Source of the DNA: Patescibacteria group bacterium
Lineage (GTDB): Bacteria > Patescibacteriota > Dojkabacteria > GCA-002793355
Length of the DNA stretch: 64,000 nt
Assembly: GCA_016860985.1 (NCBI GenBank)
Contig: BOKM01000001.1
Span: forward strand, 856,040-920,039
Direction of reading: 5' to 3'
The notes below the pieces were generated by a model. It worked only from the letters and a program-made list of their open reading frames with translations. It ran no database searches and was not told the origin of the DNA. The position numbers and the translations under genes were made by a program. Below, piece after piece: positions 46,649 to 63,847 of the stretch; position 1 is the first letter of the stretch, and each line of letters begins with the position of its first letter.

Positions 46649-47293
46649 TAGATACGTGAGTACCTGTTTGGGCGAAACATTGCTTCTTAGATACTCACTG
46701 CATTTTTGTAAAAGTTGCAACTTCGATTGAGTATCACTGCCCTTTTGCAAGTGAATATAGAGCTCACTCAAAAATGTTTCTGCGGACTGTCTGGTCCATT
46801 CTTTTTTTTGTATATGAGCATAGCCTTGTAAGATATCTGTGTTCGCTTCCGTAAAGTAGGACAATGTTTCGCTTAATTCTCTCTCCTTATTGCCCTGAAG
46901 TGAGCCCCCGAGATATTTTACGGTAGCTCTCGAGCGAATAGTAGGTAGCAAAGAGTTTTCGTCGACAACTGCCAAAATGTAATGTACCGTTTTGGGGTGG
47001 TCTTCTAACTCCTTAAGCATGGCATTCTGCGCCTCGGGGGTAGTTTTCTCAAACCCAAGAATTATCCCAAGATGAAGCGGTGCCTTAAAGGGCTTTTTGT
47101 GTAGAATTCGAGTAAATGCGCGTATATCAGCGATCCCAATCGACTCTTGTTCGTAGCCATTGAGCAAGTGAACGTCCGGATGCACGCACTCTTCTATATT
47201 GGTTACATCTAGACTCTCAATCCGTTCACGTATCATTAACGACAATTCGTTCTTAATTACGTCAAGGTCATTCCCAATTATTAGAAATGTCAT
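46622..47293 (-). CDS. holB: DNA polymerase III delta'-like subunit (short form lacking P-loop)
   Basis: …TPEAQNAMLKELEDHP…LPTIRSRATV matches the clamp-loader delta' sensor-2/arginine-finger region. Confidence 0.5.
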   Translation of the reverse strand: MTFLIIGNDLDVIKNELSLMIRERIESLDVTNIEECVHPDVHLLNGYEQESIGIADIRAFTRILHKKPFKAPLHLGIILGFEKTTPEAQNAMLKELEDHPKTVHYILAVVDENSLLPTIRSRATVKYLGGSLQGNKERELSETLSYFTEANTDILQGYAHIQKKEWTRQSAETFLSELYIHLQKGSDTQSKLQLLQKCSEYLRSNVSPKQVLTYLLFGFSDKI

Positions 47294-49760: not shown

Positions 49761-51620
49761 ATGCCACTGCCCTATACTGGTGTTGATATGCGCTTGCTCT
49801 CTGCTCTTGTTGAGCGTGGTCTTATAAAGTCCGAAGTTTCTGAGCAGATAAAGCTTGAATGCGCCCAACAAAACAAATCTGAAATTCAGCTGATTCTTGA
49901 AAAAAAGCTCGTTTCAGAGCGCGATTTATTCAAAACAAAGGCTGCAGTTTATAACGTTCAGTTCATTGATGACGTCTCTGCAATTCAGCCTCCGGCTGAG
50001 CTCATGGTCGGGATTAATATTGACGCCCTTCGAGAGCAACAGTCTTTTCCATTCGAAATGACGGATACTCGCGTCAAAATTCTTATGTCTGATCCGTTCA
50101 ATATTAACGCGATTCAATTCTGGAAGGTTAAATATTTGCCAAGGCAAATTGAGGTTTACACTGCAACTCCATCTGAGGTCGCCTCATATATCGGAACTCG
50201 ATTTGGAAGCATGATCGGCGGTGATGTTCAGGCTGCAGTTTCAAGTTATCAACAAGAGGCAGGTATCAAAGAAACCGTTATTTCTACAGATGACGTCGGA
50301 GATGTTTCACAGAATCTGCAAGGCGCACCTGTTGCCAAAATCGTAAACTCAGTATTGGTATTTGCAGCACAGGCAGGAGCTTCCGATATTCACATTGAAC
50401 CTCAAGAAAAAAGTGTTCGTATTCGATACCGTGTAGATGGTGTATTAACAGAGAAATTAACCCTTCCGAGGGAACTTCTCTCTCCTGTAATTGCAAGAAT
50501 CAAAATCATGTCCAATATGAAAATAGACGAAACTCGATTACCTCAAGATGACCGTCTGTTCATTGCAGTTGGTGATAGAAAATTTGACTTACGTGTTTCT
50601 ACTCTTCCATCTGTGCAAGGAGAAAAGATCGTCATGCGTTTGTTGGAACGAACCTCAGGTATTCCGCCATTGGAAGAATCTGGGTTAAGAGGGTCTGGAT
50701 ACAAACGATATATGGAGAGTATTAGTCTTACAAACGGAATCGTATTGGTTACAGGTCCAACCGGTAGCGGTAAAACAAGAACTTTGGCGAGTACGGTTTC
50801 TCGACTTAATGATCCAAAAGTAAATATTATCTCAATTGAAGATCCAGTCGAAATTAGAATTCCAGGTGTTACTCAAGTACAGGTTAACCACGATATCGGA
50901 CTTGATTTCGCAACTGTACTTCGAGCAGTCTTACGTCAAGACCCCAATATTGTATACCTAGGTGAAGTTCGTGACGAAGAAACCGCACGATTGGCAATCA
51001 GAGCTGCGCTTACCGGTCACTTGGTACTCTCAACTTTGCACACTAATGGTGCTGTTGCCTCTCTGGTACGTTTGATTGACATGGGGATTGAACCTTTCTT
51101 GGTAGCATCTACTGTTAAATGTGTTGTAGCTCAGCGTTTGGTAAGAACTATCTGTCCACATTGCCGTGTTGCCGAAATGGCGAGCCCAGAAATGATTGCA
51201 GAAATCAATCATATACTCGGGGGCATTCAAAACTTTGACGTAGTTCGTTATGTAGAATCAATTGCAAAGCGTGCAGCTGTTACCCCTGATGATCCGGCTT
51301 TCAAGTTTTCTCCTCCTGTTAAGTCACCAGAAATGTCCCCCGAAGGGAGAAAAACAATATATCTTTACAAAGGGGAAGGTTGTTCAAAGTGTGGAGGAAC
51401 TGGATATAAAGGTCGTATGGCAATATTTGAAGTCGCAACGGTGACCGATAAGGTCGCTTCTGGAATTGCACGAAACGCAGAGTTTGATTCGTTAGAAAAA
51501 CTTGCAGAAGAAGAAGGCATGATTACCATGGTACAAGATGGATACTTAAAAGCAATTGAGGGTATCACTACAATTGAAGAAGTAGCCCGTGTGGCCAAGA
51601 GTGATAGTGAAATAACGTAA
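49761..51620 (+). CDS. pilB: type IV pilus assembly ATPase PilB
   Basis: N-terminal GspE_N domains, Walker A VTGPTGSGKTRTLAS, C-terminal Cys4 (CPHC…CSKCGGTGYKGR). Confidence 0.85.
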   Translation: MPLPYTGVDMRLLSALVERGLIKSEVSEQIKLECAQQNKSEIQLILEKKLVSERDLFKTKAAVYNVQFIDDVSAIQPPAELMVGINIDALREQQSFPFEMTDTRVKILMSDPFNINAIQFWKVKYLPRQIEVYTATPSEVASYIGTRFGSMIGGDVQAAVSSYQQEAGIKETVISTDDVGDVSQNLQGAPVAKIVNSVLVFAAQAGASDIHIEPQEKSVRIRYRVDGVLTEKLTLPRELLSPVIARIKIMSNMKIDETRLPQDDRLFIAVGDRKFDLRVSTLPSVQGEKIVMRLLERTSGIPPLEESGLRGSGYKRYMESISLTNGIVLVTGPTGSGKTRTLASTVSRLNDPKVNIISIEDPVEIRIPGVTQVQVNHDIGLDFATVLRAVLRQDPNIVYLGEVRDEETARLAIRAALTGHLVLSTLHTNGAVASLVRLIDMGIEPFLVASTVKCVVAQRLVRTICPHCRVAEMASPEMIAEINHILGGIQNFDVVRYVESIAKRAAVTPDDPAFKFSPPVKSPEMSPEGRKTIYLYKGEGCSKCGGTGYKGRMAIFEVATVTDKVASGIARNAEFDSLEKLAEEEGMITMVQDGYLKAIEGITTIEEVARVAKSDSEIT

Positions 51621-51631
51621 TTACGAAAGAA

Positions 51632-53245
51632 ATGGACTTAAACACAGGAATTCCAATACAAAACCCAAGCACACAATTGCCGCCAGTACCACAGCAAAGT
51701 CCTACTCTTCCAAGTTTTGTTGATCCTGTGACGTCAACGGCTGCACCACTACCTTCCATGCCCCCAGTATCAGGAACTCCTGCTGATCTTCCACCTCTAG
51801 AAGATGTTGAACATTCTCAAGCGTTTGTAGATACACTGTCTGCGTTAAAAGATTTGTCTGCAAAAACGGCAGAAATACCCTTAGACTCAACGCCGGCTGT
51901 TACGGGTGATAGCCCAATAAATGAGTCTGTGAACTCTGTTGAACAGCCACCACAAGATATTCAAGAGAGTACCCCGGTTGTTCCATCTACACCAGTGGTA
52001 GAGATTAAAACACAAACTGAACCTGACATATCAACATTAACTCCACCTGTTTCTACACCTGTGCTTGAAACAGAGCTCCCTGCTCCACCTACTCAAGAGC
52101 AAATTCCTGTTACTGCTTCACCACAATTACCCGATGCTGTTATGGCACCGTTTGCTCCAGTCGGTAATATTCCAATGTCTGGCGCCTACGAAACAAAGAA
52201 ATTACTTGATATTGTTGTGCAAAAGGATGCTTCCGATTTACACCTCGTGGTAGGTTATCCTCCTATGATTCGTGTAGATGGAGATTTAGTCACGGTTGGA
52301 AGCACAATTCTCGACCCCAAAATGGCAAAGGAACTTGTCTATTCTGTTTTGCCAGATGATAAAAAAGAGCAACTTGAAGTTAACCGCGAGGTAGATCTTG
52401 CTTACCAACACGAAGGTGCTGGGCGATTTCGTATTAATGCGTATTGGCAGCGCGGGTATATTTCAGGCGCATTTCGTTTGATTCCTACAAGAATACGTAC
52501 AATTGACGAGTTAAAACTTCCACCGCTATTTCATAAATTCGCAGATATGGAACAAGGGCTTGTATTAGTGACTGGTCCAACTGGGCATGGTAAATCAACA
52601 ACCCTCGCTTCTGTTATTCACGAAATAAACATGAAGCATCCAAAGCATATTTTGACAATTGAAGATCCGATTGAATACGTATTTCCTCAGCAAAAAGCTC
52701 TCGTTTCTCAGCGAGAATTGGGTGATGATACCCATTCCTGGAAAGGTGCACTTCGTTCTGCCCTTCGTGAAGACCCTGATGTAGTACTTGTCGGAGAAAT
52801 GCGTGACTTAGAAACTATTTCTGCTGCAATAACTGTCGCAGAAACAGGTCACTTGGTATTTGCTACCTTGCACACAAACAATGCAGCGCAAACAATTCAA
52901 CGTATTGTGAACATGTATCCTGATGTACAGCAAGAGGAGATTCGTTCTGAACTTGCAGATGTACTTGAGGCAGTGGTCGCGCAGCGTTTAATTCCAGTAA
53001 AAGGTGGAGGTCGTAGAGCTGCACTCGAAGTCATGCTTATGACACCTGCTATCAGAAACCTTATTCGCGAAAACAAAATATATCAAATCGACAACATTAT
53101 CCGCACAAGTATGGACGTAGGCATGATTACGCTTGAAAAATCACTTCTCACTTTCTTTAGAGAAGGGTTGATTTCGCAAGAAGATGCACTGCGTTACGCG
53201 CTCGATGCAACTGAAATGGCAAGATTACTTGAAGAACTAGTCTAA
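51632..53245 (+). CDS. pilT: type IV pilus retraction ATPase PilT/PilU family with ~180-aa Pro/Thr/Ser-rich N-terminal extension
   Basis: Core LLDIVVQKDASDLHL…VTGPTGHGKSTTLASVIHEIN…GEMRDLETI…AHLVFATLHT is PilT-like; preceded by low-complexity PxP-rich sequence in the same ORF, 12 nt after pilB stop. Confidence 0.8.
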   Translation: MDLNTGIPIQNPSTQLPPVPQQSPTLPSFVDPVTSTAAPLPSMPPVSGTPADLPPLEDVEHSQAFVDTLSALKDLSAKTAEIPLDSTPAVTGDSPINESVNSVEQPPQDIQESTPVVPSTPVVEIKTQTEPDISTLTPPVSTPVLETELPAPPTQEQIPVTASPQLPDAVMAPFAPVGNIPMSGAYETKKLLDIVVQKDASDLHLVVGYPPMIRVDGDLVTVGSTILDPKMAKELVYSVLPDDKKEQLEVNREVDLAYQHEGAGRFRINAYWQRGYISGAFRLIPTRIRTIDELKLPPLFHKFADMEQGLVLVTGPTGHGKSTTLASVIHEINMKHPKHILTIEDPIEYVFPQQKALVSQRELGDDTHSWKGALRSALREDPDVVLVGEMRDLETISAAITVAETGHLVFATLHTNNAAQTIQRIVNMYPDVQQEEIRSELADVLEAVVAQRLIPVKGGGRRAALEVMLMTPAIRNLIRENKIYQIDNIIRTSMDVGMITLEKSLLTFFREGLISQEDALRYALDATEMARLLEELV

Positions 53246-54468
53246 TGGAAGAAAAAAAATTGTATGAATATGTCGCAGTAGGAAAAGATGGGAATCGTAC
53301 AAAAGGTTCGATGACTGCGCTTAATAAAGAAGAGGTAGTTACACAACTTTTCCAGAAAGGACTATCGCCTGTTTCAGTCGATGAGGTATCAAAATTGTTT
53401 GCACTTGATAGATTAAAAGAGGTAAACATTGGTGGGGTTCCGCTCAAAGACAAGATGATCTTCTTGAAGCAGTTCTCTATCATGTTAAACGCTGGTTTGT
53501 CGATTACTCGGGCACTTGAGGTATTAAGTATGCAAACCACCAATCCTCGGTTTAAGGTGGTACTTAAAGAGGTATTGAAGTCCGTATCGGGTGGTGTACA
53601 GCTTTCAGATTCTTTTGCAAAATACCCAGATGTATTCGATTCAATTGCAATAAACCTAATCAAAGCTGGTGAACAAAGTGGAAACCTTGGTCTCATTCTC
53701 CGTAAGCTTTCGCGTGAATATGAACAGAAAAATGCGTTAAAAAGTAAAGTCACGTCAGCACTCGCATACCCTGCAGTTCTTACAGTGGTAATGATTGGTG
53801 TAGTTGTGTTTCTGCTTGCAATTGTAGTGCCGCAATTAGAAGATGCCTTTAAGTCCTTTGGGGCGGAACTTCCATGGATTACCAAAGCTGTTATTGGGTT
53901 AAGTAAGGTAATTACAAATTATTGGTATCTAGTGCTTCTTGTGCTTATTGGTGGTGCGGTTGGCATTAAGTATTTTGTTTCAACCCCAGAAGGTCGTCGA
54001 GTATGGGATAAAATACTCATTACGGTCCCAGTATTTGGTCCATTGTTTGTCAAAATACAGGTTGCAACCTTTAGCCGGGTACTATATTTGCTTATCAGCA
54101 GCGGTGTCCCAATTCTTCAGACCTTAGAACTTACTGAAGCGACTTTAAGTAATATTTGGTTTAAAGACGAAGTGATCTCAATGCGTGATCAGGTAAAACG
54201 AGGTGTTTCTATTGCCGTACCGCTGTTACAAAGTCCTTACTTCCCTTCCATTGTTGGGTATATGGTTAATGTTGGACAAGAAACGGGTCAGCTTGATACT
54301 GTGCTTCGCAAGGTTGCAAAATATTACGATTTGGAGATTAAGACGGCAACGTCGACACTTTCATCACTACTTGAGCCAATTCTTCTCGTGGTGATGGGTG
54401 GAGTTGTAGGTGTAATTGTTGCCGCTATTTACTACCCAATGTTCCAATTGACACAGTCAATAAAATAG
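53245..54468 (+). CDS. pilC: type IV pilus assembly platform protein PilC
   Basis: 407 aa; two T2SS-F repeats, 3-4 TM segments; start overlaps pilT stop. Confidence 0.8.
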   Translation: MEEKKLYEYVAVGKDGNRTKGSMTALNKEEVVTQLFQKGLSPVSVDEVSKLFALDRLKEVNIGGVPLKDKMIFLKQFSIMLNAGLSITRALEVLSMQTTNPRFKVVLKEVLKSVSGGVQLSDSFAKYPDVFDSIAINLIKAGEQSGNLGLILRKLSREYEQKNALKSKVTSALAYPAVLTVVMIGVVVFLLAIVVPQLEDAFKSFGAELPWITKAVIGLSKVITNYWYLVLLVLIGGAVGIKYFVSTPEGRRVWDKILITVPVFGPLFVKIQVATFSRVLYLLISSGVPILQTLELTEATLSNIWFKDEVISMRDQVKRGVSIAVPLLQSPYFPSIVGYMVNVGQETGQLDTVLRKVAKYYDLEIKTATSTLSSLLEPILLVVMGGVVGVIVAAIYYPMFQLTQSIK

Positions 54469-54512
54469 TCTATTCTGAAACGTATTAAGGTATTTAACAT
54501 TGCTCAATTTAT

Positions 54513-55088
54513 ATGAAACTTAAAGCATTTACCCTCGTGGAGCTTCTCGTCGTAATGGCGATTATCAGCTTCCTTTCTGTCGGTGCATTTGCCGGCTTAA
54601 GCTATGGACTCCGACAATCTCGTGATGTTCAAAAGAAAAAGCTTGTAGACCTAGCTCACACTGCACTTCAAGCATATTATGCAGATTATGCAGCATATCC
54701 AAAATGTAACGGTGCACCCTCTACTGTCACAGGGTTAACTGGTGGTTGGTATTACTGCCCAGGTGCTTTTCCAATTAGAGGTCAAGCAGGTTCAGGTTTC
54801 TTGATAACTTCTGGCGGTATTACAGGTTTAATGGACTATCTTGAAGGTGAATGGCCAACTTCAAACTCTAATGCTGATCCAGCTGCTGGTGATAAATATC
54901 TGAGATACTATATTAATACAGGCAGCGGTGGCGCAAGCGGAACCCCACTTAAATTCGCAGTTTGTATAACAGTCGAAAACAAGAACGGAAACTCAAACCT
55001 TACCCGAAAGGGCACAACGGTTAAAGACTGTTACTGTGCAGGTGCCGAGTATGCAGAGGTTTCCTGTGCTGGTATGGATGGTCGTTAG
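54513..55088 (+). CDS. type IV pilin (probable major pilin), prepilin-type N-terminal methylation domain
   Basis: MKLKA|FTLVELLVVMAIISFL, Glu+5, C-terminal Cys pair (CYCAGAEYAEVSC). Confidence 0.75.
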   Translation: MKLKAFTLVELLVVMAIISFLSVGAFAGLSYGLRQSRDVQKKKLVDLAHTALQAYYADYAAYPKCNGAPSTVTGLTGGWYYCPGAFPIRGQAGSGFLITSGGITGLMDYLEGEWPTSNSNADPAAGDKYLRYYINTGSGGASGTPLKFAVCITVENKNGNSNLTRKGTTVKDCYCAGAEYAEVSCAGMDGR

Positions 55089-55111
55089 GTCATTCGTTAG
55101 TTAACTCTGTT

Positions 55112-55873
55112 ATGTCACAAGATCAGATTATAATCCTTGCATTCGCTTTTTCTGGTCTTGTGCTTTCAGAGTATGTGCAGCTCATTTCTGATCGTGGTTC
55201 ATTTCTCGATTCCTTGTGGGGGCGTTCTCAGTGTGATTCATGTAAATCGACTATCCCTTGGTTCGGATTAATACCTCTTTTGGGACGTTTTTTACTTAAG
55301 GGTTCGTGTCCAACTTGCGGTAAGCATGTGAGTTGGAAATATTTTCAGTTTGAAGTGATTTTTGGTTTAGGGTGGATAGCTTCCTTGGCTTTCTTTTATA
55401 TCAATTCCATTACTTCCCCACTTATACTTGCTGTCTATCTTCTTCTCTATTGTACTTCGTGGTTACTCATGTACGAGGATGGAAAGCATTATTCTGTTCC
55501 AGTTTCTTGGCTTATTTCTTGGGGAATTACGTACGTGTTGGCGTGGTTCTTTACCTCGTCTACTCATCAGGTATACCCTCCAGATACACTTCTTATGGCG
55601 GCGACACTAGGATTGGCTTTAGTCAGTGTTGCATTAAGAAAACCAAAGGAAGAAAGAGGTATTTCACAGTTATTTGGTGCTGCTGACTTTATTGTGCTGT
55701 TTCTGTTTGTCTTGTTGTTAGGTTTTCAGTACACCACCGTTATTTTAGTGCTAACAATGATTAATGCTGTGCTTTACTTACTTATGAGAAAACAGCTAAA
55801 GGCAGGGCAAAGACTACCTTTGCTTACTGTAATGCTCCCTTGGGGATATGTGCTCCTTTTTCTATTGTTTTGA
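55112..55873 (+). CDS. pilD: prepilin peptidase (A24 family)
   Basis: N-terminal CDSCKSTIPW…CPTCGKHVSW tetracysteine zinc motif, polytopic membrane body; TGA stop. Confidence 0.75.
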   Translation: MSQDQIIILAFAFSGLVLSEYVQLISDRGSFLDSLWGRSQCDSCKSTIPWFGLIPLLGRFLLKGSCPTCGKHVSWKYFQFEVIFGLGWIASLAFFYINSITSPLILAVYLLLYCTSWLLMYEDGKHYSVPVSWLISWGITYVLAWFFTSSTHQVYPPDTLLMAATLGLALVSVALRKPKEERGISQLFGAADFIVLFLFVLLLGFQYTTVILVLTMINAVLYLLMRKQLKAGQRLPLLTVMLPWGYVLLFLLF

Positions 55874-55875
55874 TT

Positions 55876-56430
55876 CTAACGGATTGACACATTTATAAAT
55901 CGCGAGATGTTCTTTACGGCTGGTTCTTCTCCAAGTTTCGCAGTTGACTCCATTGTGTAGGTGAGATTCACATTCGCAACTTGTGCCTCATCAAAATCTG
56001 GTGTTTCACATGTGAAGGCTAAACTCGTAACTTTTACATCTGCATACGTTAGGACTGTTTCACAAACGGGGGTGGTCGCCTGTGCCATACAGAAACGGTA
56101 TTTGTCATCAGCTTCTTTTTGACCGTAAAAAATGAACGTGTCACTTGCCCCTTTTGGTTGCCACGTCACGCTTTTTATTGGATCATTTGGTGCCGAACAT
56201 TTTATTGATCGTGGGTCAGCATTCTTAATACGTAGCTTAAAGTATTCACCTACAAACTCACTTTCGTTTCTGACGGCTGTTCTTGCATCGATAAGGTATG
56301 AGCCGAGTAATAAGGTATTAAACGACTGCACTATCATCACAAAAATCAAAGAAATTAAAGTCATCGCGATGATCGTCTCAAGAAGAGTAAAGCCAGCGAT
56401 TTTCGTTTCTACATGCTTATTGTGGTCCAC
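55876..56430 (-). CDS. minor pilin (prepilin-type N-terminus)
   Basis: …KIAG|FTLLETIIAMTLISLIFV, Gly-1/Glu+5. Confidence 0.6.
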   Translation of the reverse strand: MDHNKHVETKIAGFTLLETIIAMTLISLIFVMIVQSFNTLLLGSYLIDARTAVRNESEFVGEYFKLRIKNADPRSIKCSAPNDPIKSVTWQPKGASDTFIFYGQKEADDKYRFCMAQATTPVCETVLTYADVKVTSLAFTCETPDFDEAQVANVNLTYTMESTAKLGEEPAVKNISRFINVSIR

Positions 56431-57046
56431 TTGTTCGGTACAATTGAAAGCTTAGCTTAAAGGGTTTAAAGGTCGTACTGTCGCACATACCTTCAATACA
56501 GGCAACAATTATTTCAATATTTGCATCATTTGGCGAGTCCTGCGCTTCTGTGAACTCCTTTTGGTCGTTGTCTTTTCGTACGATTATTCGGCCAAAAAGC
56601 TTTTTGTTAAAATTATCTTCAACCTCGTTGGCGGCGGTTAACGCACAGTCGTTGCCTGAAAGATAGCCGGTAGCTTCTTCAAAATGACAGGTATCGTAAG
56701 TAAGTCGCGTAAGTTTTGGTTTTACGTTTGGGTCGCTTACATCAAGATAACCCATTGGTTGTTGCGTTATTGGCGAATTATTTACGGCAGGAGGAATGGC
56801 GGCATTTTCTCCAAAACTGTTCTGCCAATCGGTGTCTTTTGTGTTGTAAACTACCTGTACAACCTCGGTCGCATAATTGCGCATCTTATCTTGAAGTTCT
56901 AGTGTTTTTGTTCGCTTTAAAGAATCAAACGTCATCTGCAAAAGTGACGAAAAAACAAAAGCTGCAACGGCAAGTGCGACAAGAACTTCGATTAAGGTCA
57001 TTGCTGTGATTGTGCGATTAGGTTGTGGTTGCATTGATTTCACCAT
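56417..57046 (-). CDS. minor pilin (prepilin-type N-terminus)
   Basis: …RTITA|MTLIEVLVALAVAAFVF, Ala-1/Glu+5. Confidence 0.6.
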   Translation of the reverse strand: MVKSMQPQPNRTITAMTLIEVLVALAVAAFVFSSLLQMTFDSLKRTKTLELQDKMRNYATEVVQVVYNTKDTDWQNSFGENAAIPPAVNNSPITQQPMGYLDVSDPNVKPKLTRLTYDTCHFEEATGYLSGNDCALTAANEVEDNFNKKLFGRIIVRKDNDQKEFTEAQDSPNDANIEIIVACIEGMCDSTTFKPFKLSFQLYRTSGPQ

Positions 57047-57704
57047 TGTTTTTAAGGTTAAGCTTTATACGGTACCTTTCTTTGTCCAAGTATTCAATCT
57101 GAACTTTGAGATCAAGGTTGGCACCAAGCGAAACGTCGATACCACTGGTATTTCTGCAATACGCGTGTAATTTTCCGTTAATGGATTCGTAAATAATTGT
57201 TAACGCAGTTGTGCAAGTGGTCGCTCCATTGGAAATGACAAAATTCATACCGAGTGGCAAAATCTGCGCTGTCGTATTGTCAATTTTTCTGAGAATAAGC
57301 TCATTAGAGCCATAGCCACCACAGGAGTTTGGATTACCATCCCACTCAAGCTCTAAGCAAGGGTCACCACTGGGGAAGGATTGATAAAAATAGTTGTTTG
57401 AAACTGGGTTGCTGAGTGCCTTTACTTGTAGCATTTGCCATTGCTTGGTGGTGTTACTGTACTCGAACCGAAAGCCAATTCCTTGGACCCACTCTCGTTC
57501 GCTTGAGTTACGAGTGATAAGCATTGATTTTCTTCGGAGGATTCGCGCATTTTGTACTGCTGTTTTAATGTATTGTTGTGCAATAAAGGTGTCTCGCGCT
57601 CTTTGAGTAAAACCTGAGGAAAGAAGAAGTATGACTCCAAATATGACAAGTACAACGAGTAACTCGAGTAATGTGTAGGCGTTAGTTCGCCTTGGTGCAG
57701 TCAT
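57018..57704 (-). CDS. minor pilin (prepilin-type N-terminus)
   Basis: …RTNA|YTLLELLVVLVIFGVILLL, Ala-1/Glu+5. Confidence 0.6.
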   Translation of the reverse strand: MTAPRRTNAYTLLELLVVLVIFGVILLLSSGFTQRARDTFIAQQYIKTAVQNARILRRKSMLITRNSSEREWVQGIGFRFEYSNTTKQWQMLQVKALSNPVSNNYFYQSFPSGDPCLELEWDGNPNSCGGYGSNELILRKIDNTTAQILPLGMNFVISNGATTCTTALTIIYESINGKLHAYCRNTSGIDVSLGANLDLKVQIEYLDKERYRIKLNLKNNGEINATTT

Positions 57705-57722: not shown

Positions 57723-59600
57723 TTACCAAGAACCGCCACCGCCACCGCCGCTTCCTCCTCCGCTGAACCCGCCGCCGCCACTAAACGAAGAACCACTTGA
57801 ACGAGGTGGTGTTGAAATTTTAGTCATAGAAGATGCAACGTTGTTTGCAAGTGATGCGTAGGTTCTTGGAAGTGCATGTGTAAGGGGAACATCGCTTGTC
57901 ATCCAGGTTGGAGAGTAGTTAAGTTGTTCAAGTACTGGACCAAAGGCAGAAGACCATTTCTTATCTAGTCCAAAAATAATGGCAAAAGGTAATAGTTCTT
58001 CAAAATGAGCAATCATTTTTTGTGGATCGTTAAAGAATTCTAGTCGTCTTAATTCTGCGGTCTTAATGTATTTTTTTAACCCGAGAAGTTCACGAGTTAT
58101 AACCTCTCCTTCTTTCGTACGTTTGAGCATACGAGCACCAAATATAAAAAACATTGCAGCACTTATGCCGAGCGCAAATGGGAGGATAAACGGAGTGACA
58201 CCTTCGGTAGTTCCCTCCCCTATCATTGCGAGTAGAATCACTGCGCCAGCAGCGCAAAAGCCCCCAAGAACGTAAAACTTTTTTTGCAGACCTTCGGACT
58301 GGTCTGTTGTATAAGGGAGCTGTTCAAATTCTTTGCCGGCATCTGAATTAATTCGTTGAATAGCGGTATCAACATTTTTAAGGGTATGAATTGCTGATTC
58401 AGCACTGTAATTTCTTGTGAGTACTTCTATCATTTCTTTTAGCGAAGAAGGTGCTTTGTCGAGATATTCCTCTAATTTCGGTCGTTGTGAGTCAGAGATT
58501 TTTAACGTGACTTTTCCTTTTGTAAAGTCGATAGTAAGAAGGTTTTGTTCCGCAATTTTAATGAGTTCGGCGAGTGTTGCCAGGGGCTTTTTATTCATCG
58601 ATAGCAACGAGCTATATGCACTCAAACTGCCATTTTTCAATTCGTCAGAAACAATGAATTGTGGTGGGATGGCAGATAAAGGAAGATCTTTTCCGTGTTT
58701 CTTCCATGTGAAATACCCATATATTCCGACAAATACAGGAATGAGTAGTGATACATATGGAAGTATTGCCAAAATTTTCTCAAGTAACTGTTCTGAAGCG
58801 CTAGGGGGAGAGAACGAATTGTCGGGGAATTTTAATGCTATCGTTAGCCCTTGCGCTAACGAAGAACTCGGCACCGTTGTGGAAAAATAGGTATCACTCG
58901 CTCTGGATGAAATTTGACACTGTGTTTCGGTTGATCCTGATACCCCTGTATAGCACCGACTTTCTGTTGGTTGATGTGGTGAAGTAATGCGCGCGGTCGC
59001 TGCAATTATAGGTATTTCCCATTGATCTCCTGTGATATTGAGGTATAACTCTTGGTAACCATCTTGGAACCTAACCGAATGCTTCATTTCATACGTAATA
59101 GTAAATTCGTATGCTCCTTGAATGAGTGTGTCAGCTTCACCAATCTTCAGTACAGTATAGTTACCTTTTGATTTACTTGAACTGTAAGCACTTGTGGTAG
59201 TTCCTTGTAAATCGCCAATCTGGCTAGGAAGTTTTTTGTAGTTGACCGAATCAATGGTTATTGGCTGTTTTAGTTTTTTGCCGCTATCAAGAATAACTTC
59301 ATTTGGAATCCATCGATAAATACCGTGTCTTTCGTTAGGAAAATATACAATAATTTTTTCTGTAATGGTTGCGGTGCCGTTTTGCGCAAGCTCTACTACT
59401 GAATCAAAATTAGTAATTATGCCGTCAGCGTATCTTTGTGGCGCACCGGTATCACTTACTGATTTTTTTACAGATTCTTGGGTATGTGTTTGCCCCGCGG
59501 TTGCAGCATCTACGGTTGGGAGTGCTGCGAAACTCGTACCAATAATAACAACCAAAAGCGTAATCGCAAAAAAGTAACGAGGTATCTTATCGAAACCCAT
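57723..59600 (-). CDS. DUF2207-family membrane protein with Gly/Ser-rich C-terminal tail
   Basis: 625 aa; signal peptide, large extracytoplasmic domain, 2-3 TM segments, C-terminus SSGSSFSGGGGFSGGGSGGGGGGSW. Confidence 0.6.
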   Translation of the reverse strand: MGFDKIPRYFFAITLLVVIIGTSFAALPTVDAATAGQTHTQESVKKSVSDTGAPQRYADGIITNFDSVVELAQNGTATITEKIIVYFPNERHGIYRWIPNEVILDSGKKLKQPITIDSVNYKKLPSQIGDLQGTTTSAYSSSKSKGNYTVLKIGEADTLIQGAYEFTITYEMKHSVRFQDGYQELYLNITGDQWEIPIIAATARITSPHQPTESRCYTGVSGSTETQCQISSRASDTYFSTTVPSSSLAQGLTIALKFPDNSFSPPSASEQLLEKILAILPYVSLLIPVFVGIYGYFTWKKHGKDLPLSAIPPQFIVSDELKNGSLSAYSSLLSMNKKPLATLAELIKIAEQNLLTIDFTKGKVTLKISDSQRPKLEEYLDKAPSSLKEMIEVLTRNYSAESAIHTLKNVDTAIQRINSDAGKEFEQLPYTTDQSEGLQKKFYVLGGFCAAGAVILLAMIGEGTTEGVTPFILPFALGISAAMFFIFGARMLKRTKEGEVITRELLGLKKYIKTAELRRLEFFNDPQKMIAHFEELLPFAIIFGLDKKWSSAFGPVLEQLNYSPTWMTSDVPLTHALPRTYASLANNVASSMTKISTPPRSSGSSFSGGGGFSGGGSGGGGGGSW

Positions 59601-59605
59601 TATTG

Positions 59606-60169
59606 TTAGAACTCAACTTTAACTGGTTCCTTTTCTTCGTCAGCTGCAGCAAAGAATTCTGCGGGCGTGAATTTCATAAGGTTGGCAAGCAGAACATTTG
59701 GGAAAACCTGAATCTTTGTGTTGTATTCACCAACAGTTGCATTATAGTAACGTCGTGATTTCTGTATTTCTGTTTCCAGGTCGGATAATTGATTCTGAAG
59801 TTGCAAGAACGAGGCATCAGCCTTTAGGTTAGGGTAATTTTCTGCAACAGCAAAGAGAGATTTAAGCGTAGAGGTCATTTCGTTGTTTAACGCTGAAAGT
59901 TCTGCCATGCTCCCACCTGATGCCTGCATTTTTGTTCTGAGTTCGGTAACTTTGGTAAATACTCCCTCTTCATGTTTTGCGTAACCTTTTACTGTGTTGA
60001 CCAAGTTAGGCACCATATCAAAGCGCTTTTTCAAGAGAGTCTCAATATCTGCAGAGGCCTCTTTTACTAACATTCTTTGTTGAACAAGAACGTTGTAAAG
60101 ACTAATAGCAAAAAATACAATTGCAACTGCGATCGCTGCAACTCCAAATAAAACTGAACCAAGCATCAT
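59606..60169 (-). CDS. lemA: LemA family protein
   Basis: 187 aa; N-terminal TM then LVQQRMLVKEASADIETLLKKRFDMVPNLVNTVKGYAKHE…YNATVGEYNTKIQVFPNVLLANLMKF matches LemA throughout. Confidence 0.75.
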   Translation of the reverse strand: MMLGSVLFGVAAIAVAIVFFAISLYNVLVQQRMLVKEASADIETLLKKRFDMVPNLVNTVKGYAKHEEGVFTKVTELRTKMQASGGSMAELSALNNEMTSTLKSLFAVAENYPNLKADASFLQLQNQLSDLETEIQKSRRYYNATVGEYNTKIQVFPNVLLANLMKFTPAEFFAAADEEKEPVKVEF

Positions 60170-60217
60170 ACAAAAAATAACCTTAGTTATTGATTATCGT
60201 TGCTTCTGACAAGATTG

Positions 60218-62872
60218 TCAATTCGAAGGGATAAGCGTGTCGAAATCGATATCTTGCGGATTTTTTCCAGTTGCTTGTTGAGACTGCAAGATATTCTTCG
60301 CAAGTGCCGTTTCTAGTGAATCTTGTAGTACTCTTCGTAGTGGTCTGGCTCCCATTCCTGGAGAATACCCGTGCGAGACAATATAGGCGATGGTCTTATT
60401 CGTGTAGGTTGACCTGATTCCCTGCTCTGCGAGCTTACTTACCAACTCGTTTACCATAAGCACCGCAATTTGCTGAAGATGTTCAAGTGAAAGTGCACCA
60501 AACACTACTACTTTATCAAATCGATTGATAAGTTCGACTTTAAGATATGTAGGGAGCAAATCAAGGACCTGCAATTTTGCTTCTTCAAACTTATCTGGCG
60601 GTGTTTTAAGAAGTAAATCGCTACCGATGTTACTTGTTGCAATTATGATCGCATTATTAAAATATAAGGTTTCGTCTTCGGGCGTTACTACGATTCCCTC
60701 GTCAAACAAGCGCATGAAGATGTCGTGAATTGCGGGAGTTGTTTTTTCGAACTCGTCAAGCAACAGGAGTGTATAAGGTCTGACCGTTACCTTTTTTAGT
60801 TGATTGATAATGGTTGGAATGTCGTCGTCCCTTTTGTACTGAGAAAGATCAATACGAATGAGCGAAAAATCGCTGCCAAAATATTCTTTTGCGGTAATTT
60901 TTGCTAATTCAGTTTTTCCTACACCTGAAGGACCGAGAAACAGGAATACTCCGAATGGGTGGCCAGTATTTCGAATGTTGGTTTTTGCTCGTTGTAACGA
61001 ATCTACTATTGCAAGTACGGCATCATGTTGGTTTACATATTTTTGATGAATTCTTTTTTCAAGGGTGAGCAATTTCTCTGCTTCTTCTGGTGATGCTTGC
61101 GCAACTGGAATATCTGATAACGTTTGAATGACTTGAGTAACAAGCTCTCTCGTCAACTTTCGCTCTTTTGTATTTGCAGCCTGAGCTGCTGCTTGTTCTA
61201 ATAATTCCACTGCTTTTTTGGGGAAGCGTTTGTTAGGTTGATAGGTCGCGGTCAGTGTAATGACCTCCTTTAGTGCAGGTATACTAATCGAGATTTTGTG
61301 CATTTTTTCTAGTTGGTCAATCTTGGTCGTTAGAATGGTGAACGTGTCTTCTTCGGAGACTTGGTCAACACGGACCTCTTTGAATGCATCGATGAGTGTT
61401 GGGTACCTTTCTTTAAGTTTTGTATATTGGGCAAAGGTCATGGTTCCCACAATTGGAACAGGACTTTCCAATAAAAGTGGCATTAGATATGATATTGCCG
61501 TCCCCTCGCCTACCCCCGTCGAAAGCAGAACTTCCAAATCATCAAAATATAAAATGGTGCCAACCTGTTTTCTGAGTTCCTCTGATAATTTTTGAACAAG
61601 CTCCGGAAGTCCACCCTGACCTGCCGATGCCAACGAAAGGAACTTGTTAATATCAACAGTTTTAATCGTGAGATTCTTTAATGCTGGTGGAATATCTCCT
61701 TCGAGGATTCTTTGTGCAAGACCGTATATTATACTGCTCTTTCCAACACCCGGATCGCCTACGAGAACTGCATTGGCGTCGTATTCCTTCTGTAAAATAC
61801 CGATGAGGTTGTTAATCTCTTTTGTATGACCGACTCCATAAATACCTCCTCTATTGTTGACCTGCTCGAGAACATTCGTTGAGATTTTATCGAGATAAAA
61901 AGTGTATCCTTTTACCCAGCCATCGGCCACGCCCCCTTTCGCATAGTACGGTTGTGAAATGTCGAAGGCGTTTGTTCTTGCTTGGTACTGTTCATTGATG
62001 ATGTACCACTCGATTGTTTTAACAAATGTCATAAAATCTACTTTCTGTTCTTGGAGTACCTCTTTAAGCACTGGAAAAATCGCAAAAAGTGCAAGCAGTA
62101 GGTGCTCAGGATATACCCGTTTACTTTTGGTCAGTATCGCCTGCTCAGTTGCATACAGTACAAAAGACTGTACCGCAGTGTAATCGTATTGTGGCGCACT
62201 CTCTGGTGTCAGCTGTACGGCACTCAATCTTTTTTGCGCTTCGGGAATATCGAGGCGGGTCAGTACCCGAATCACGTGCTCATGAGAAAGGATTGTTTTT
62301 AGAAGTTTGGCTGTATCTAGGATAGTCCCTTGTTTTGTTGTAGTAAGTGCATTCACTATTAAGTCAAAGGTAACTGGGTGAAAGTAATCCAGCGGCTGCT
62401 GGATAAGATATTGTTGAAACTGAACGCCCTGATTTTCTAGTGAACTTTTTAAAAAGTCATCAATCTTTGGGTAGGTGACTAACAGTTTGTGCGCATCAAA
62501 ATTTGTTGCAACTTCATGCCACAAAATTAAAAGTGCGAGTGCTGCGAGAAAGATTATCTCTTTGATTAGTACTAGCAGCGAGTGTGGTAATGTCGTACTG
62601 CTTAACGCAAGTGTTTGCATTACATAGATAATCGAGAGAGGAATGGCTGCAATAAGTAGCGAAGTCGATACTACTCGTTTTATCTTTCTGAACGCAATCA
62701 TCGCCTTATAGCTTTTGAGACGCTCGGTTAGTTCTTGTAAAGATAGAAAGAATAGGTCAAACTGGGTAATCAAAAAGGGCTCGTATTGAGAATCAATAAT
62801 TACTGCATGGTTATCATACAATTGGGATTTATCTTGCAACTTGTCGTGAAAGGCAGTAATAACGTTACTCAT
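60218..62872 (-). CDS. ClpA/ClpB/ClpC-like double-AAA+ ATPase with N-terminal transmembrane anchor
   Basis: 884 aa; two hydrophobic helices in first ~120 aa, Clp_N-like repeat region, D1 Walker A GDPGVGKSSIIYGLAQRI, D2 Walker A LFLGPSGVGKTELAK, D2 small domain GARPLRR. Confidence 0.7.
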   Translation of the reverse strand: MSNVITAFHDKLQDKSQLYDNHAVIIDSQYEPFLITQFDLFFLSLQELTERLKSYKAMIAFRKIKRVVSTSLLIAAIPLSIIYVMQTLALSSTTLPHSLLVLIKEIIFLAALALLILWHEVATNFDAHKLLVTYPKIDDFLKSSLENQGVQFQQYLIQQPLDYFHPVTFDLIVNALTTTKQGTILDTAKLLKTILSHEHVIRVLTRLDIPEAQKRLSAVQLTPESAPQYDYTAVQSFVLYATEQAILTKSKRVYPEHLLLALFAIFPVLKEVLQEQKVDFMTFVKTIEWYIINEQYQARTNAFDISQPYYAKGGVADGWVKGYTFYLDKISTNVLEQVNNRGGIYGVGHTKEINNLIGILQKEYDANAVLVGDPGVGKSSIIYGLAQRILEGDIPPALKNLTIKTVDINKFLSLASAGQGGLPELVQKLSEELRKQVGTILYFDDLEVLLSTGVGEGTAISYLMPLLLESPVPIVGTMTFAQYTKLKERYPTLIDAFKEVRVDQVSEEDTFTILTTKIDQLEKMHKISISIPALKEVITLTATYQPNKRFPKKAVELLEQAAAQAANTKERKLTRELVTQVIQTLSDIPVAQASPEEAEKLLTLEKRIHQKYVNQHDAVLAIVDSLQRAKTNIRNTGHPFGVFLFLGPSGVGKTELAKITAKEYFGSDFSLIRIDLSQYKRDDDIPTIINQLKKVTVRPYTLLLLDEFEKTTPAIHDIFMRLFDEGIVVTPEDETLYFNNAIIIATSNIGSDLLLKTPPDKFEEAKLQVLDLLPTYLKVELINRFDKVVVFGALSLEHLQQIAVLMVNELVSKLAEQGIRSTYTNKTIAYIVSHGYSPGMGARPLRRVLQDSLETALAKNILQSQQATGKNPQDIDFDTLIPSN

Positions 62873-63270
62873 GCTGCAAGGAATGGATTTATGATGATAA
62901 GACCAATTACCACGGGCAGCACTGCAAGCTGTAGAAGGAGTAGCGCAAAGAATAGTCCTAATATGAGAATAAACAATGATCCACTAAGTGGAAGGTAGAT
63001 TGTTTTAATAACCATGCCAACAAGCCATCCTGCAATGTTGTAGTCATTTTTCCAAGGTCTAAAGTATCCGCGAAGAATAACGCCGAAAGATGTTGTATCG
63101 TTAAATACTTGAAATACTCTACGTAGGAGAGCGAATAATGCGAGAGGAATATCTCCATACCACCAACCAAAAAAGGAGCGGACAAAATCAATGGAACTTG
63201 AAAAAATTTGTAAGGTTGTCGGTTTATGCAGGCGCAGGTCTTGAATCATGGGCAGTCTCCTCAGATACAA
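62869..63270 (-). CDS. small polytopic membrane protein
   Basis: 133 aa, ~4 hydrophobic segments; stop overlaps Clp-like start (ATGA). Confidence 0.35.
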   Translation of the reverse strand: MYLRRLPMIQDLRLHKPTTLQIFSSSIDFVRSFFGWWYGDIPLALFALLRRVFQVFNDTTSFGVILRGYFRPWKNDYNIAGWLVGMVIKTIYLPLSGSLFILILGLFFALLLLQLAVLPVVIGLIIINPFLAA

Positions 63271-63847
63271 TATACTCTGTTTGAGCTAAAAATGCTACTC
63301 GATTTAGCCCATAGTCTCGACGTTCTGCTTCTGTTAGGCCGACTGGAATAGGGAGTGTCATTTTTCTTGGATATTTCACAATTATTATAGATCGGGGGCG
63401 CAGGAGTGCTTTTGCTCGGTCCACGAGTTCGAGCATATAATCGCTATATTCATCGGGGCGCATTGCTCGTAAGACAGTAAATGGAGGGTCAATGAATATT
63501 ATGTCAAAGGTTCTTTTTCGTTTTATGGATTTAACCAGAAAATCTATAGCATCTGATTGATAAACTACGCCATTCTCTTTTATGCCAAGTGCAACCAAAT
63601 TGTATTTGATTATTTCTGTCGATTTCGAAGAAATATCGACGAAAATAACTTTCCGTGCTCCACGAGAAAGTGCTTCAATTCCAAAGGCCCCAGTTCCAGC
63701 ATAAAGATCAAGCACCGACGCCCCCTGAATAAAATCCGCCAAAAAATCGAAAATGCTTAAGCGTAAAAGCCTTTGAGTTGGTCGGACGTCTTTTTTAGGA
63801 ACTGCGAGCTTTGCTCTTTTGTATGTTCCTGATGCTATGTAAGCCAT
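63224..63847 (-). CDS. rsmD: 16S rRNA (guanine966-N2)-methyltransferase
   Basis: RPTQRLLRLSIFDFL…VLDLYAGTGAFGIEALSRGARKVIFVD…DPPF, RsmD signature. Confidence 0.75.
   Translation of the reverse strand: MAYIASGTYKRAKLAVPKKDVRPTQRLLRLSIFDFLADFIQGASVLDLYAGTGAFGIEALSRGARKVIFVDISSKSTEIIKYNLVALGIKENGVVYQSDAIDFLVKSIKRKRTFDIIFIDPPFTVLRAMRPDEYSDYMLELVDRAKALLRPRSIIIVKYPRKMTLPIPVGLTEAERRDYGLNRVAFLAQTEYIVSEETAHDSRPAPA

Follow-up and report, generated by a model that had tools for sequence, protein, structure and literature searches.

Threading of polypeptides driven by ATP is exemplified in textbooks by the Clp/Hsp100 proteins, whose canonical members are regarded as soluble; in ClpB, an M-domain couples to DnaK. 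Translocation by ClpB requires its pore loops, in which residues Y251 and Y653 touch the backbone of the substrate (PMC6546751). The Torsins, which are derived from Clp/Hsp100, lack both aromatic pore loops as well as an arginine finger, and depend on a membrane cofactor (PMC5425593). Here we compare with these systems a gene from a Patescibacteria group bacterium of the Dojkabacteria (assembly GCA_016860985.1, contig BOKM01000001.1). It lies at 60218..62872 (-) in the window, by which we mean the whole stretch of 64,000 nucleotides that was analysed (positions 856,040 to 920,039), and encodes 884 amino acids (aa). Its product is a double-AAA+ protein derived from the Clp/Hsp100 family and anchored in the membrane, and the gene forms a conserved two-gene module with a small membrane-protein gene immediately upstream. 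Judged from its sequence, an Hsp100 lineage appears to have been anchored in the membrane and to have discarded both threading loops, while retaining one active ATPase ring.

The initial annotation, made from the letters alone, had described the open reading frame (ORF) as a Clp-family double-AAA+ ATPase with a two-helix N-terminal membrane anchor, and Pfam, hydropathy and the homologues all bear this out. The ORF has exactly the limits, strand and length that had been given, and the four strings quoted from it are present: GDPGVGKSS at residues 372-380, LFLGPSGVGKTELAK at 644-658, VVSTSLLIAAIPLSIIYVMQTLAL at 67-90 and LLVLIKEIIFLAALALLILW at 99-118. The suggested search with hidden Markov models (HMMs) returned Pfam AAA_2 (residues 639-787), ClpB_D2-small (794-869), AAA_lid_9 (506-590) and AAA. 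The protein thus has the tandem AAA+ pair (D1 and D2), the D1 lid (AAA_lid_9) and the C-terminal D2-small domain of class I Clp/Hsp100 proteins, and both of its AAA+ modules can be aligned to the structures of ClpB and ClpA. The top NCBIfam models are ClpB, ClpK, ClpA, ClpV and ClpG, all far under their curated cut-offs (353 against 1232 bits for ClpB, TIGR03346, and 308 against 993 bits for ClpA, TIGR02639), which marks the protein as a Clp/Hsp100 relative and an orthologue of no named subfamily. The full-length homologues form a tight set of 16 (P0001-P0016, 51-100% identity, 881-898 aa), followed by a sharp drop in score to canonical ClpB at ~315 bits; over the AAA+ modules, identity to canonical Clp is only ~30-36%.

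The membrane anchor and its small partner

The protein begins with a predicted cytoplasmic mini-domain of residues 1-44 (62741..62872 (-)), for which AlphaFold2 places strands at residues 5-10, 15-18, 30-35 and 39-42, and whose mean majority fraction across the family is 0.74. Transmembrane helix 1, at residues 67-90 (62603..62674 (-)), is preceded by the K/R-rich stretch FRKIKR. Transmembrane helix 2, at residues 98-118 (62519..62581 (-)), ends in an invariant LWH (L117, W118 and H119). Between them lies a connecting loop of residues 91-97 (62582..62602 (-)), which carries no net positive charge, is assigned to the outer side, and falls in a part of the model that is non-helical (residues 88-96). 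Kyte-Doolittle hydropathy, averaged over 19 residues, peaks at 2.18 in helix 1 and 2.81 in helix 2 and nowhere exceeds 1.57 past residue 130. Approximate Hessa insertion energies are +1.1 kcal/mol for helix 1 and -1.7 kcal/mol for helix 2. Across the family, the 15 residues preceding helix 1 contain a mean of 5.5 lysines and arginines and the seven-residue connecting loop a mean of 0.1, a bias that, under the positive-inside rule, is consistent with an N-in, loop-out, C-in hairpin.

Helix 1 has the lowest sequence conservation (majority fraction 0.49), yet is hydrophobic in every homologue, the pattern expected of a lipid-facing helix. N-terminal hydrophobic segments are found in 16 of 16 close homologues and in the distant relatives, mostly as two clear segments at residues ~60-125. 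Comparable segments occur in only one of 104 canonical Clp matches, and this exception, P0050, has the same architecture on inspection and is itself a member of the family. Residues 1-345 were modelled with AlphaFold2 on the 16 homologues (predicted local distance difference test, pLDDT, 78.5; predicted template-modelling score, pTM, 0.74). After the four-stranded mini-domain (5-42), the model has a long helix (45-87) and, beyond a loop, a second helix (97-123), followed by a helical domain. The model shows a two-helix hairpin that would put the ATPase body in the cytoplasm below the membrane, with its N-domain/D1 face toward the bilayer. The initial annotation had likened such positioning to that of FtsH, and the predicted hairpin topology agrees, in that the ring would turn its N-domain face to the membrane.

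It had also been allowed that the true start codon might lie downstream of the hydrophobic stretches, or that these might be buried helices of a soluble protein. The ATG at 62872 shares the sequence ATGA with the TGA stop of the upstream ORF, the small partner gene described below, and residues 1-65 are well conserved among homologues, with D10, K11, Y19, N21, E31 and P32 invariant; both observations place the start codon 5´ of the helices. No in-frame ATG occurs between residues 85 and 281. As for buried helices, the hydropathy, the hydrophobicity of the segments throughout the family and the positive-inside charge pattern all speak for the membrane. An annotation artefact of either kind is therefore barely credible, even with the borderline insertion energy of helix 1 in its favour, given the missing ATG codons, the ATGA overlap, the conserved N-terminus, the uniform lengths of the homologues (881-898 aa), and a first helix that varies but always stays hydrophobic.

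Behind the anchor, residues ~165-300 (61973..62380 (-)) may form a degenerate helical domain of the Clp_N type. We accept this assignment with a caveat, as the sequence match is sub-threshold and the predicted fold carries much of the case. Pfam Clp_N scores 13 bits on the 884-aa protein (E 0.12, residues 253-287; cut-off 20.7) and matches 11 of the 16 family members (best E 1.4e-4), all under the cut-off; none of the 16 has a precomputed Clp_N match. A profile search of the PDB with the N-terminal 345 residues gave insignificant matches only (E 0.48 and 1.6), the second of them to the ClpC2 N-domain. A Foldseek search of the PDB with the model of residues 1-345 matched the N-terminal domain of PfHSP101 (probability 0.99, target TM-score 0.60) and that of E. 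coli ClpB (probability 0.91, TM-score 0.58, root-mean-square deviation 3.5 Å across 108 columns), but the E-values of these Clp N-domain matches are weak, at 0.08-0.5. Of the "Clp_N-like repeat" noted earlier, then, the sequence score does not reach significance, and the likeness stands in that the predicted fold best matches Clp N-domains.

The small partner gene lies at 62869..63249 (-) and encodes 126 aa from an ATG at 63249, a start chosen to match those of its homologues. The protein has hydrophobic C-terminal helices and no Pfam match. Its AlphaFold2 model (pLDDT 92.3) contains helices at residues 12-53, 55-60 and 72-124; when it was compared with the PDB by Foldseek, every match had E > 6 and none was meaningful. 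The family is recognizable by the motif F..WWY..P, followed by S...L...F.P(W/M)(K/Y)..D...G and then the transmembrane helices. The partner gene directly precedes or overlaps the AAA+ gene in 12 of 12 loci, with junctions of -16 to +8 nucleotides (nt); the window and three further Dojkabacteria loci with the same pair are among them. The pair is also found in distant lineages, beside P0050 (90-aa ORF), P0146 of the Peribacteria (139 aa), P0126 (130 aa), P0154 (151 aa) and P0142 (109 aa); the lone exception without a visible partner gene, P0135, is situated at a contig end. Neighbours other than the partner gene are unrelated between lineages.

A profile search with the partner retrieved 103 clusters, all hypothetical and without a Pfam match, from Dojka-, Peri-, Peregrini-, Uhr- and Saccharibacteria and unclassified Patescibacteria. 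When the test was reversed and started from three of the small proteins (one each from Uhrbacteria, Saccharibacteria and a further Patescibacterium), the next gene was Clp-like in all three cases. These Clp-like proteins (804-898 aa) have hydrophobic segments near the N-terminus, have lost the same motifs and keep D2 intact. We also considered whether the partner might donate an arginine finger, as LAP1 does for Torsin, and rejected this, as the partner contains no invariant arginine: the GR..IS..R of other lineages is GW..VG..K in the Dojkabacteria.

ATPase motifs and distribution of the family

Motifs were compared through HMMER residue alignments to ClpB of T. thermophilus and E. coli and through motif blocks against 104 canonical matches; the counts given below are for the 16 close members and 103 canonical matches. 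D1 with its lid spans residues 346-570 (61163..61837 (-)), as defined by HMMER alignment to ClpB D1 and by AAA_lid_9. Its Walker A motif, GDPGVGKSS (61733..61759 (-)), is conserved relative to the canonical GEPGVGKTA. At the pore-loop position, LASAGQGGLPELVQK (61589..61633 (-)), which aligns to Y251 of E. coli ClpB, the K-Y/F-R-G-E-F motif is absent and ASAGQGGLPE replaces AK-Y/F-RGEFEE; a KYR-type motif is found in 0 of 16 family members versus 103 of 103 canonical proteins, and a GG-L/I/V at the loop position is retained and conserved. The Walker B motif, ILYFDDLEVLL (61523..61555 (-)), has aspartate in place of the catalytic glutamate of the canonical IDELH, and reads DD, DE or DN across the family. 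At the arginine-finger position, PTLIDAFKEV (61373..61402 (-)) replaces the canonical aLERRFq. Both fingers are thereby lost, with IDAF or LQSF standing for ERRF, which is present in 0 of 16 family members versus 100 of 103 canonical proteins. From these residues, D1 can probably bind nucleotide at most and is catalytically degenerate.

D2 presents a different picture. The AAA_2 module with ClpB_D2-small occupies residues 571-870 (60263..61162 (-)), as delimited by Pfam, the ClpA model and the ClpB alignments, and its catalytic set is complete in the window protein. Walker A (GPSGVGKTE, 60908..60934 (-)), Walker B (LLLLDEFEKT, 60740..60769 (-)), sensor 1 (IIATSNIGS, 60620..60646 (-)) and sensor 2 (GMGARPLRR, 60332..60358 (-)) are canonical, as is the trans-acting arginine finger (VELINRFD, 60515..60538 (-); NRFD versus NRID). 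What is missing is the GYVGY pore loop. At the deletion site, DLSQYKRDDDIPTIINQLKKVTVRPY (60773..60850 (-)), the alignments and motif blocks lack the canonical GAPPGYVGYEEGG, 13-14 residues being deleted, and GYVGY is found in 0 of 16 family members versus 103 of 103 canonical proteins. The initial annotation had treated the protein as a working chaperone or unfoldase; this assumption finds no support, both pore loops and the D1 arginine fingers being gone.

Other accessory elements of Clp proteins were also sought. There is no M-domain between D1 and D2: the ClpA model aligns as one stretch (residues 347-869), and when aligned to ClpB, D1 runs to ~567 and D2 begins at ~556-575, with nothing matching ClpB residues ~395-505. 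The check for a ClpP-docking loop that had been proposed gave a stretch of 41 aa between sensor 1 and NRFD without [ILV]GF, compared with 49-51 aa and LGF or VGF in the ClpC controls. The absence of a protease domain had been anticipated, and the Pfam and NCBIfam scans gave no Peptidase_M41 or FtsH-type match. The motif losses are not a quirk of the lineage, since a canonical Clp of 805-811 aa, encoded a few genes away in related Dojkabacteria, retains every motif (KFRG, ERRF, GYVGF or GYIGY, DELH, DEIE, NRID and GARP).

The homolog survey that had been suggested recovered the fusion of transmembrane segments to a Clp protein in 16 close and ~20 distant homologues from several Candidate Phyla Radiation lineages. 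When one genome per GTDB species was scanned, the anchored Clp-like gene turned up in six loci, labelled Candidatus Dojkabacteria (three), uncultured Saccharibacteria (two) and "bacterium" (one); the Dojkabacteria loci are those of the complete genomes CP129477.1 and CP129470.1 and one contig of a metagenome-assembled genome. An exhaustive HMM search with a profile of the N-terminal 345 residues yielded 32 representatives at the 50%-identity level, mostly 800-940 aa, among them Candidatus Peribacteria proteins annotated as "hypothetical". Residues 1-337 gave no match in a word-indexed homologue search, despite a 100% identical full-length protein in the database; we discarded this result because of the limits of the word index, where short or hydrophobic queries give untrustworthy negatives.

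All of the distant representatives lack the D1 arginine fingers and GYVGY, and a tyrosine near the D1 pore-loop position occurs in P0135 only. In these proteins both the length and the sequence of the D2 loop region vary, which indicates that the loop is under no constraint. The D2 catalytic motifs (Walker B, sensor and finger) have been lost in five of 17 distant representatives (P0121, P0125, P0131, P0132 and P0141), and P0015, within the close family, has lost the D2 arginine finger and sensor 2. Evidently the scaffold persists after decay of the ATPase in some members, and the losses in five of 17 fit a role in which the scaffold counts at least as much as the motor.

The family proposed here is defined by a hydrophobic N-terminal anchor, which in most members is a clear two-helix hairpin, a putative Clp_N-like domain, a double AAA+ without KYR, ERRF and GYVGY, and a gene directly after that of a small membrane protein with the WWY/F.PW motif. 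The window pair has all of these features, as do 11 further loci, which represent at least five lineages. The family is found across the Candidate Phyla Radiation, in Dojka-, Peri-, Uhr- and Saccharibacteria, and the module has been retained there despite reduced genomes that keep few genes. Neither this spread nor the translationally coupled partner featured in the initial annotation. Database entries for the family read "ClpC", "Clp protease ATP-binding subunit" or "hypothetical", and full-text literature searches brought up no account of a bacterial Hsp100 that is anchored in the membrane and lacks pore loops, nor any of its partner. Two gene families that are now "hypothetical" or mis-annotated as "ClpC" would gain a testable two-component identity.

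Possible functions and the genomic setting

The anchored Clp-like protein is probably not an ordinary unfoldase. On balance, we lean towards a non-threading, membrane-embedded ATP-driven switch or remodeller, a gate or a regulated scaffold, whose logic would be closer to that of Torsin than to that of ClpB or FtsH. In this model, the ring would assemble through nucleotide-bound D1, and D2 would be the sole motor. Without pore loops, hand-over-hand threading of polypeptide would not take place. Instead, ATP hydrolysis in D2 would drive a conformational cycle that is passed on through the N-domain and the transmembrane region rather than to a polypeptide in the pore, and the recipient of the switch could be the small partner or a membrane-embedded client. 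If this is correct, the module offers a genetically simple bacterial system in which to ask how a pore-loop-less Hsp100 derivative turns ATP hydrolysis into work, a question that is still open for the Torsins.

A broader proposal, which we put forward tentatively and regard as rather less probable, is that the partner and the anchored ring form an unrecognised membrane AAA+ machine specific to, and probably important in, the Candidate Phyla Radiation. Hydrolysis by D2 might there serve a non-threading job, such as gating or assembling an envelope or cell-surface complex, and the machine would be a bacterial counterpart of the Torsin or Bcs1 type with an independent origin from Hsp100.

Several points weigh against a non-threading switch. 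The D1 ring of p97 and the D2 ring of NSF lack aromatic pore loops, yet are part of threading machines, and it is possible that the conserved GG-L/I/V of D1 supports a residual, non-canonical pore here. The strict conservation of the D2 catalytic motifs in the Dojkabacteria clade shows, as far as sequence can, that the motor is under selection, which would fit an unfoldase too. Adjacency is a weaker sign of physical interaction in the compact genomes of the Candidate Phyla Radiation than it is elsewhere, and the topology on which the model draws is a prediction from hydropathy, charge bias and AlphaFold2.

The foremost competitor is the one favored by the initial annotation: a true membrane-tethered Hsp100 unfoldase or disaggregase that, like an FtsH without its protease, extracts or unfolds envelope, membrane or pilus proteins through a non-canonical pore. 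The order of domains (N-domain, D1, D2 and D2-small), the conservation of all D2 catalytic motifs, an N-domain face directed toward the membrane as in FtsH, and the GG-L/I/V at the D1 loop are what such an enzyme would show, and in the Dojkabacteria the gene stands in a co-directional string with lemA, a DUF2207 gene and three pilin-like genes, beside a type IV pilus cluster. We nevertheless consider it unlikely. Both aromatic pore loops are absent, that of D2 by physical deletion, and the D2 loop region is hypervariable in distant members; the D1 arginine fingers are gone, and some family members have wholly lost their ATPase motifs. Moreover, the synteny with pilus genes is restricted to the Dojkabacteria, and related Dojkabacteria genomes already encode a canonical Clp unfoldase.

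That canonical protein suggests another arrangement, in which the anchored subunits act as a membrane tether in mixed rings with a ClpC or ClpB paralogue. The paralogue would supply the D1 fingers and pore loops, and the anchored subunits together with the small partner would bring the unfoldase to the membrane. A D1 P-loop without fingers of its own could be completed only by a finger-bearing neighbouring subunit, a canonical Clp gene is located two genes from the module in the Dojkabacteria and directly adjacent to it in locus L022, and completion of an active site by a partner has a precedent in the superfamily in the Torsins (PMC5425593). In most other lineages, however, the canonical gene is not adjacent; identity to canonical Clp is only ~30-36%, and the missing M-domain alters ring geometry. 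We judge this arrangement quite improbable. More improbable still is a part in anti-phage defence resembling that of the ClpB-like DolB of Dodola, a reading that we rejected: the PADLOC match to DolB (95 bits, E 1e-27, residues 492-751; PDC-M37B also matches weakly) is only partial and can be put down to the general likeness among ClpB-like AAA+ proteins, no DolA-like gene stands nearby, PADLOC gives no match for the small partner, and the module sits at one conserved site amid housekeeping genes (rsmD, bacA, murG, nusB, rnc and groEL) rather than in a variable island.

Gene order around the module is retained within the Dojkabacteria but not in other lineages. Upstream, an rsmD-type methyltransferase gene (Cons_hypoth95, 63224-63847 (-)) overlaps the start of the partner by ~26 nt (63224-63249), and the overlaps of rsmD, the partner and the Clp-like gene indicate that they are packed as in an operon. 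The rsmD gene lies directly upstream in the Dojkabacteria and also in the P0126 lineage. Canonical Clp genes near the module, encoding 805-880 aa with two Clp_N repeats and every motif, are found in L003 (2546-4981), L005 (2555-4972), L011 (4500-6923) and L022 (2191-4833); in the last of these, from another Patescibacterium, the gene directly adjoins the module in divergent orientation. Relative to our window, the canonical gene would fall beyond coordinate 64000, past rsmD, bacA and murG.

On the 3´ side of the Clp-like gene, and on the same strand, are lemA (59606..60169 (-)), a gene for a DUF2207 membrane protein with a glycine-rich C-terminal tail, …SGGGGFSGGGSGGGGGGSW (57723..59600 (-)), and three pilin-like genes (55876-57704 (-)). 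These face, on the other strand, genes for a PilB-like protein with MshEN and T2SSE domains (49761-51620 (+)), a second, pilT-like T2SSE ATPase (51632-53245 (+)), PilC/T2SSF (53245-54468 (+)), a pilin with an N_methyl motif (54513-55088 (+)) and a prepilin peptidase (55112-55873 (+)). Positions 49761-57704 of the window hold a complete type IV pilus gene set, an arrangement kept in other Dojkabacteria loci; lemA comes after the Clp-like gene in all Dojkabacteria loci, and DUF2207 is present in some only. The initial annotation had raised pilus substrates, and synteny within the Dojkabacteria is in keeping with this, but in other lineages the neighbours differ wholly and only the partner gene stays. 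The pilus association is therefore best read as lineage synteny, and we have set aside a pilus-related function, as type IV pilus synteny is absent outside the Dojkabacteria.

Other neighbours recur among the loci compared (L001-L006, L013, L016-L018, L020 and L022). They include murG and bacA/uppP in the Dojkabacteria, FemAB in two loci, Band_7/SPFH in two loci and, in three loci, a Glycos_transf_4 (MraY/WecA-like) gene that is immediately downstream of the module or separated from it by one small ORF. Together, these neighbours give a weak hint of cell-envelope biogenesis.

A scan of 55-64 kb for promoters and terminators found no more sites than in shuffled sequence and cannot define the transcription unit. 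A sigma-70-type match of 11/12 (TTGACA, 17 nt, GATAAT) is located at 60193-60221 (-), at the 3´ end of the Clp-like ORF and upstream of lemA. Going by this consensus match only, lemA and the genes downstream of it may perhaps be transcribed separately. Farther away, between a class I tRNA synthetase gene (47290-49644) and other genes, is a large ORF of 727 aa (44465-46648 (+)) with a match to DUF4153, a family of membrane proteins without assigned function.

Comparison with known systems

ClpB/Hsp104 (TIGR03346; PDB 1qvr and 6oax) is the best-scoring family, at 353 bits in NCBIfam and an E-value of 7e-88 in the PDB search. The window protein has in common with ClpB the two AAA+ modules, AAA_lid_9, ClpB_D2-small, a full D2 catalytic set and the lack of a ClpP loop. 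Unlike ClpB, it has no M-domain, no D1 KYR loop, no D2 GYVGY loop and no D1 arginine fingers, and it carries a 120-residue N-terminal extension with a beta mini-domain and two transmembrane helices, next to an obligate small membrane-protein neighbour. The resemblance to ClpA and ClpC (TIGR02639; PDB 1ksf and 3pxi) lies in a D1 joined to D2 without a long coiled coil and in a putative N-domain of the Clp_N type. Again, however, the window protein lacks the pore loops and the D1 arginine fingers, as well as the IGL/IGF loop for docking to ClpP and the UVR motif, and it is membrane-anchored.

A degenerate motor on an Hsp100 scaffold may also have parallels in eukaryotes. The plant ClpB-like proteins of the SMAX1/D53 type are Hsp100-derived double-AAA+ proteins with a degenerate motor and non-chaperone roles, and members of our family give weak precomputed Pfam matches to NBD_SMAX1. 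SMAX1/D53 proteins have an M-domain and an EAR motif, and act as soluble repressors in the nucleus, without a membrane anchor.

The position at the membrane recalls FtsH, which likewise has two N-terminal transmembrane helices per subunit and a cytoplasmic AAA+ ring below the membrane with its entry face to the bilayer. In FtsH, however, the single AAA module belongs to the classical clade and has an aromatic pore loop, the two helices are separated by a sizeable periplasmic domain, and an M41 protease lies at the C-terminus, whereas the window protein has a loop of seven residues between its helices, no protease and no pore loops.

The Torsins offer the closest match in logic, with an N-terminal hydrophobic membrane association, no aromatic pore loops, incomplete arginine fingers, and a pairing with a membrane-protein cofactor, and Pfam Torsin matches D2 of two distant family members weakly. 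There are clear differences in architecture. A Torsin has a single AAA+ module, resides in the lumen of the endoplasmic reticulum and lacks a finger in its only site, whereas the window protein has two modules, of which D2 keeps its finger and D1 is degenerate. In addition, the Torsin cofactor (of the LAP1/LULL1 type) has a degenerate AAA+ fold, while the partner here is predicted to be a helical membrane protein. We therefore regard the likeness to Torsin as an analogy and not as membership. By its sequence, the protein is clearly Clp/Hsp100 by descent, yet it appears to fail the features that define each of ClpB, ClpA/C, FtsH and Torsin.

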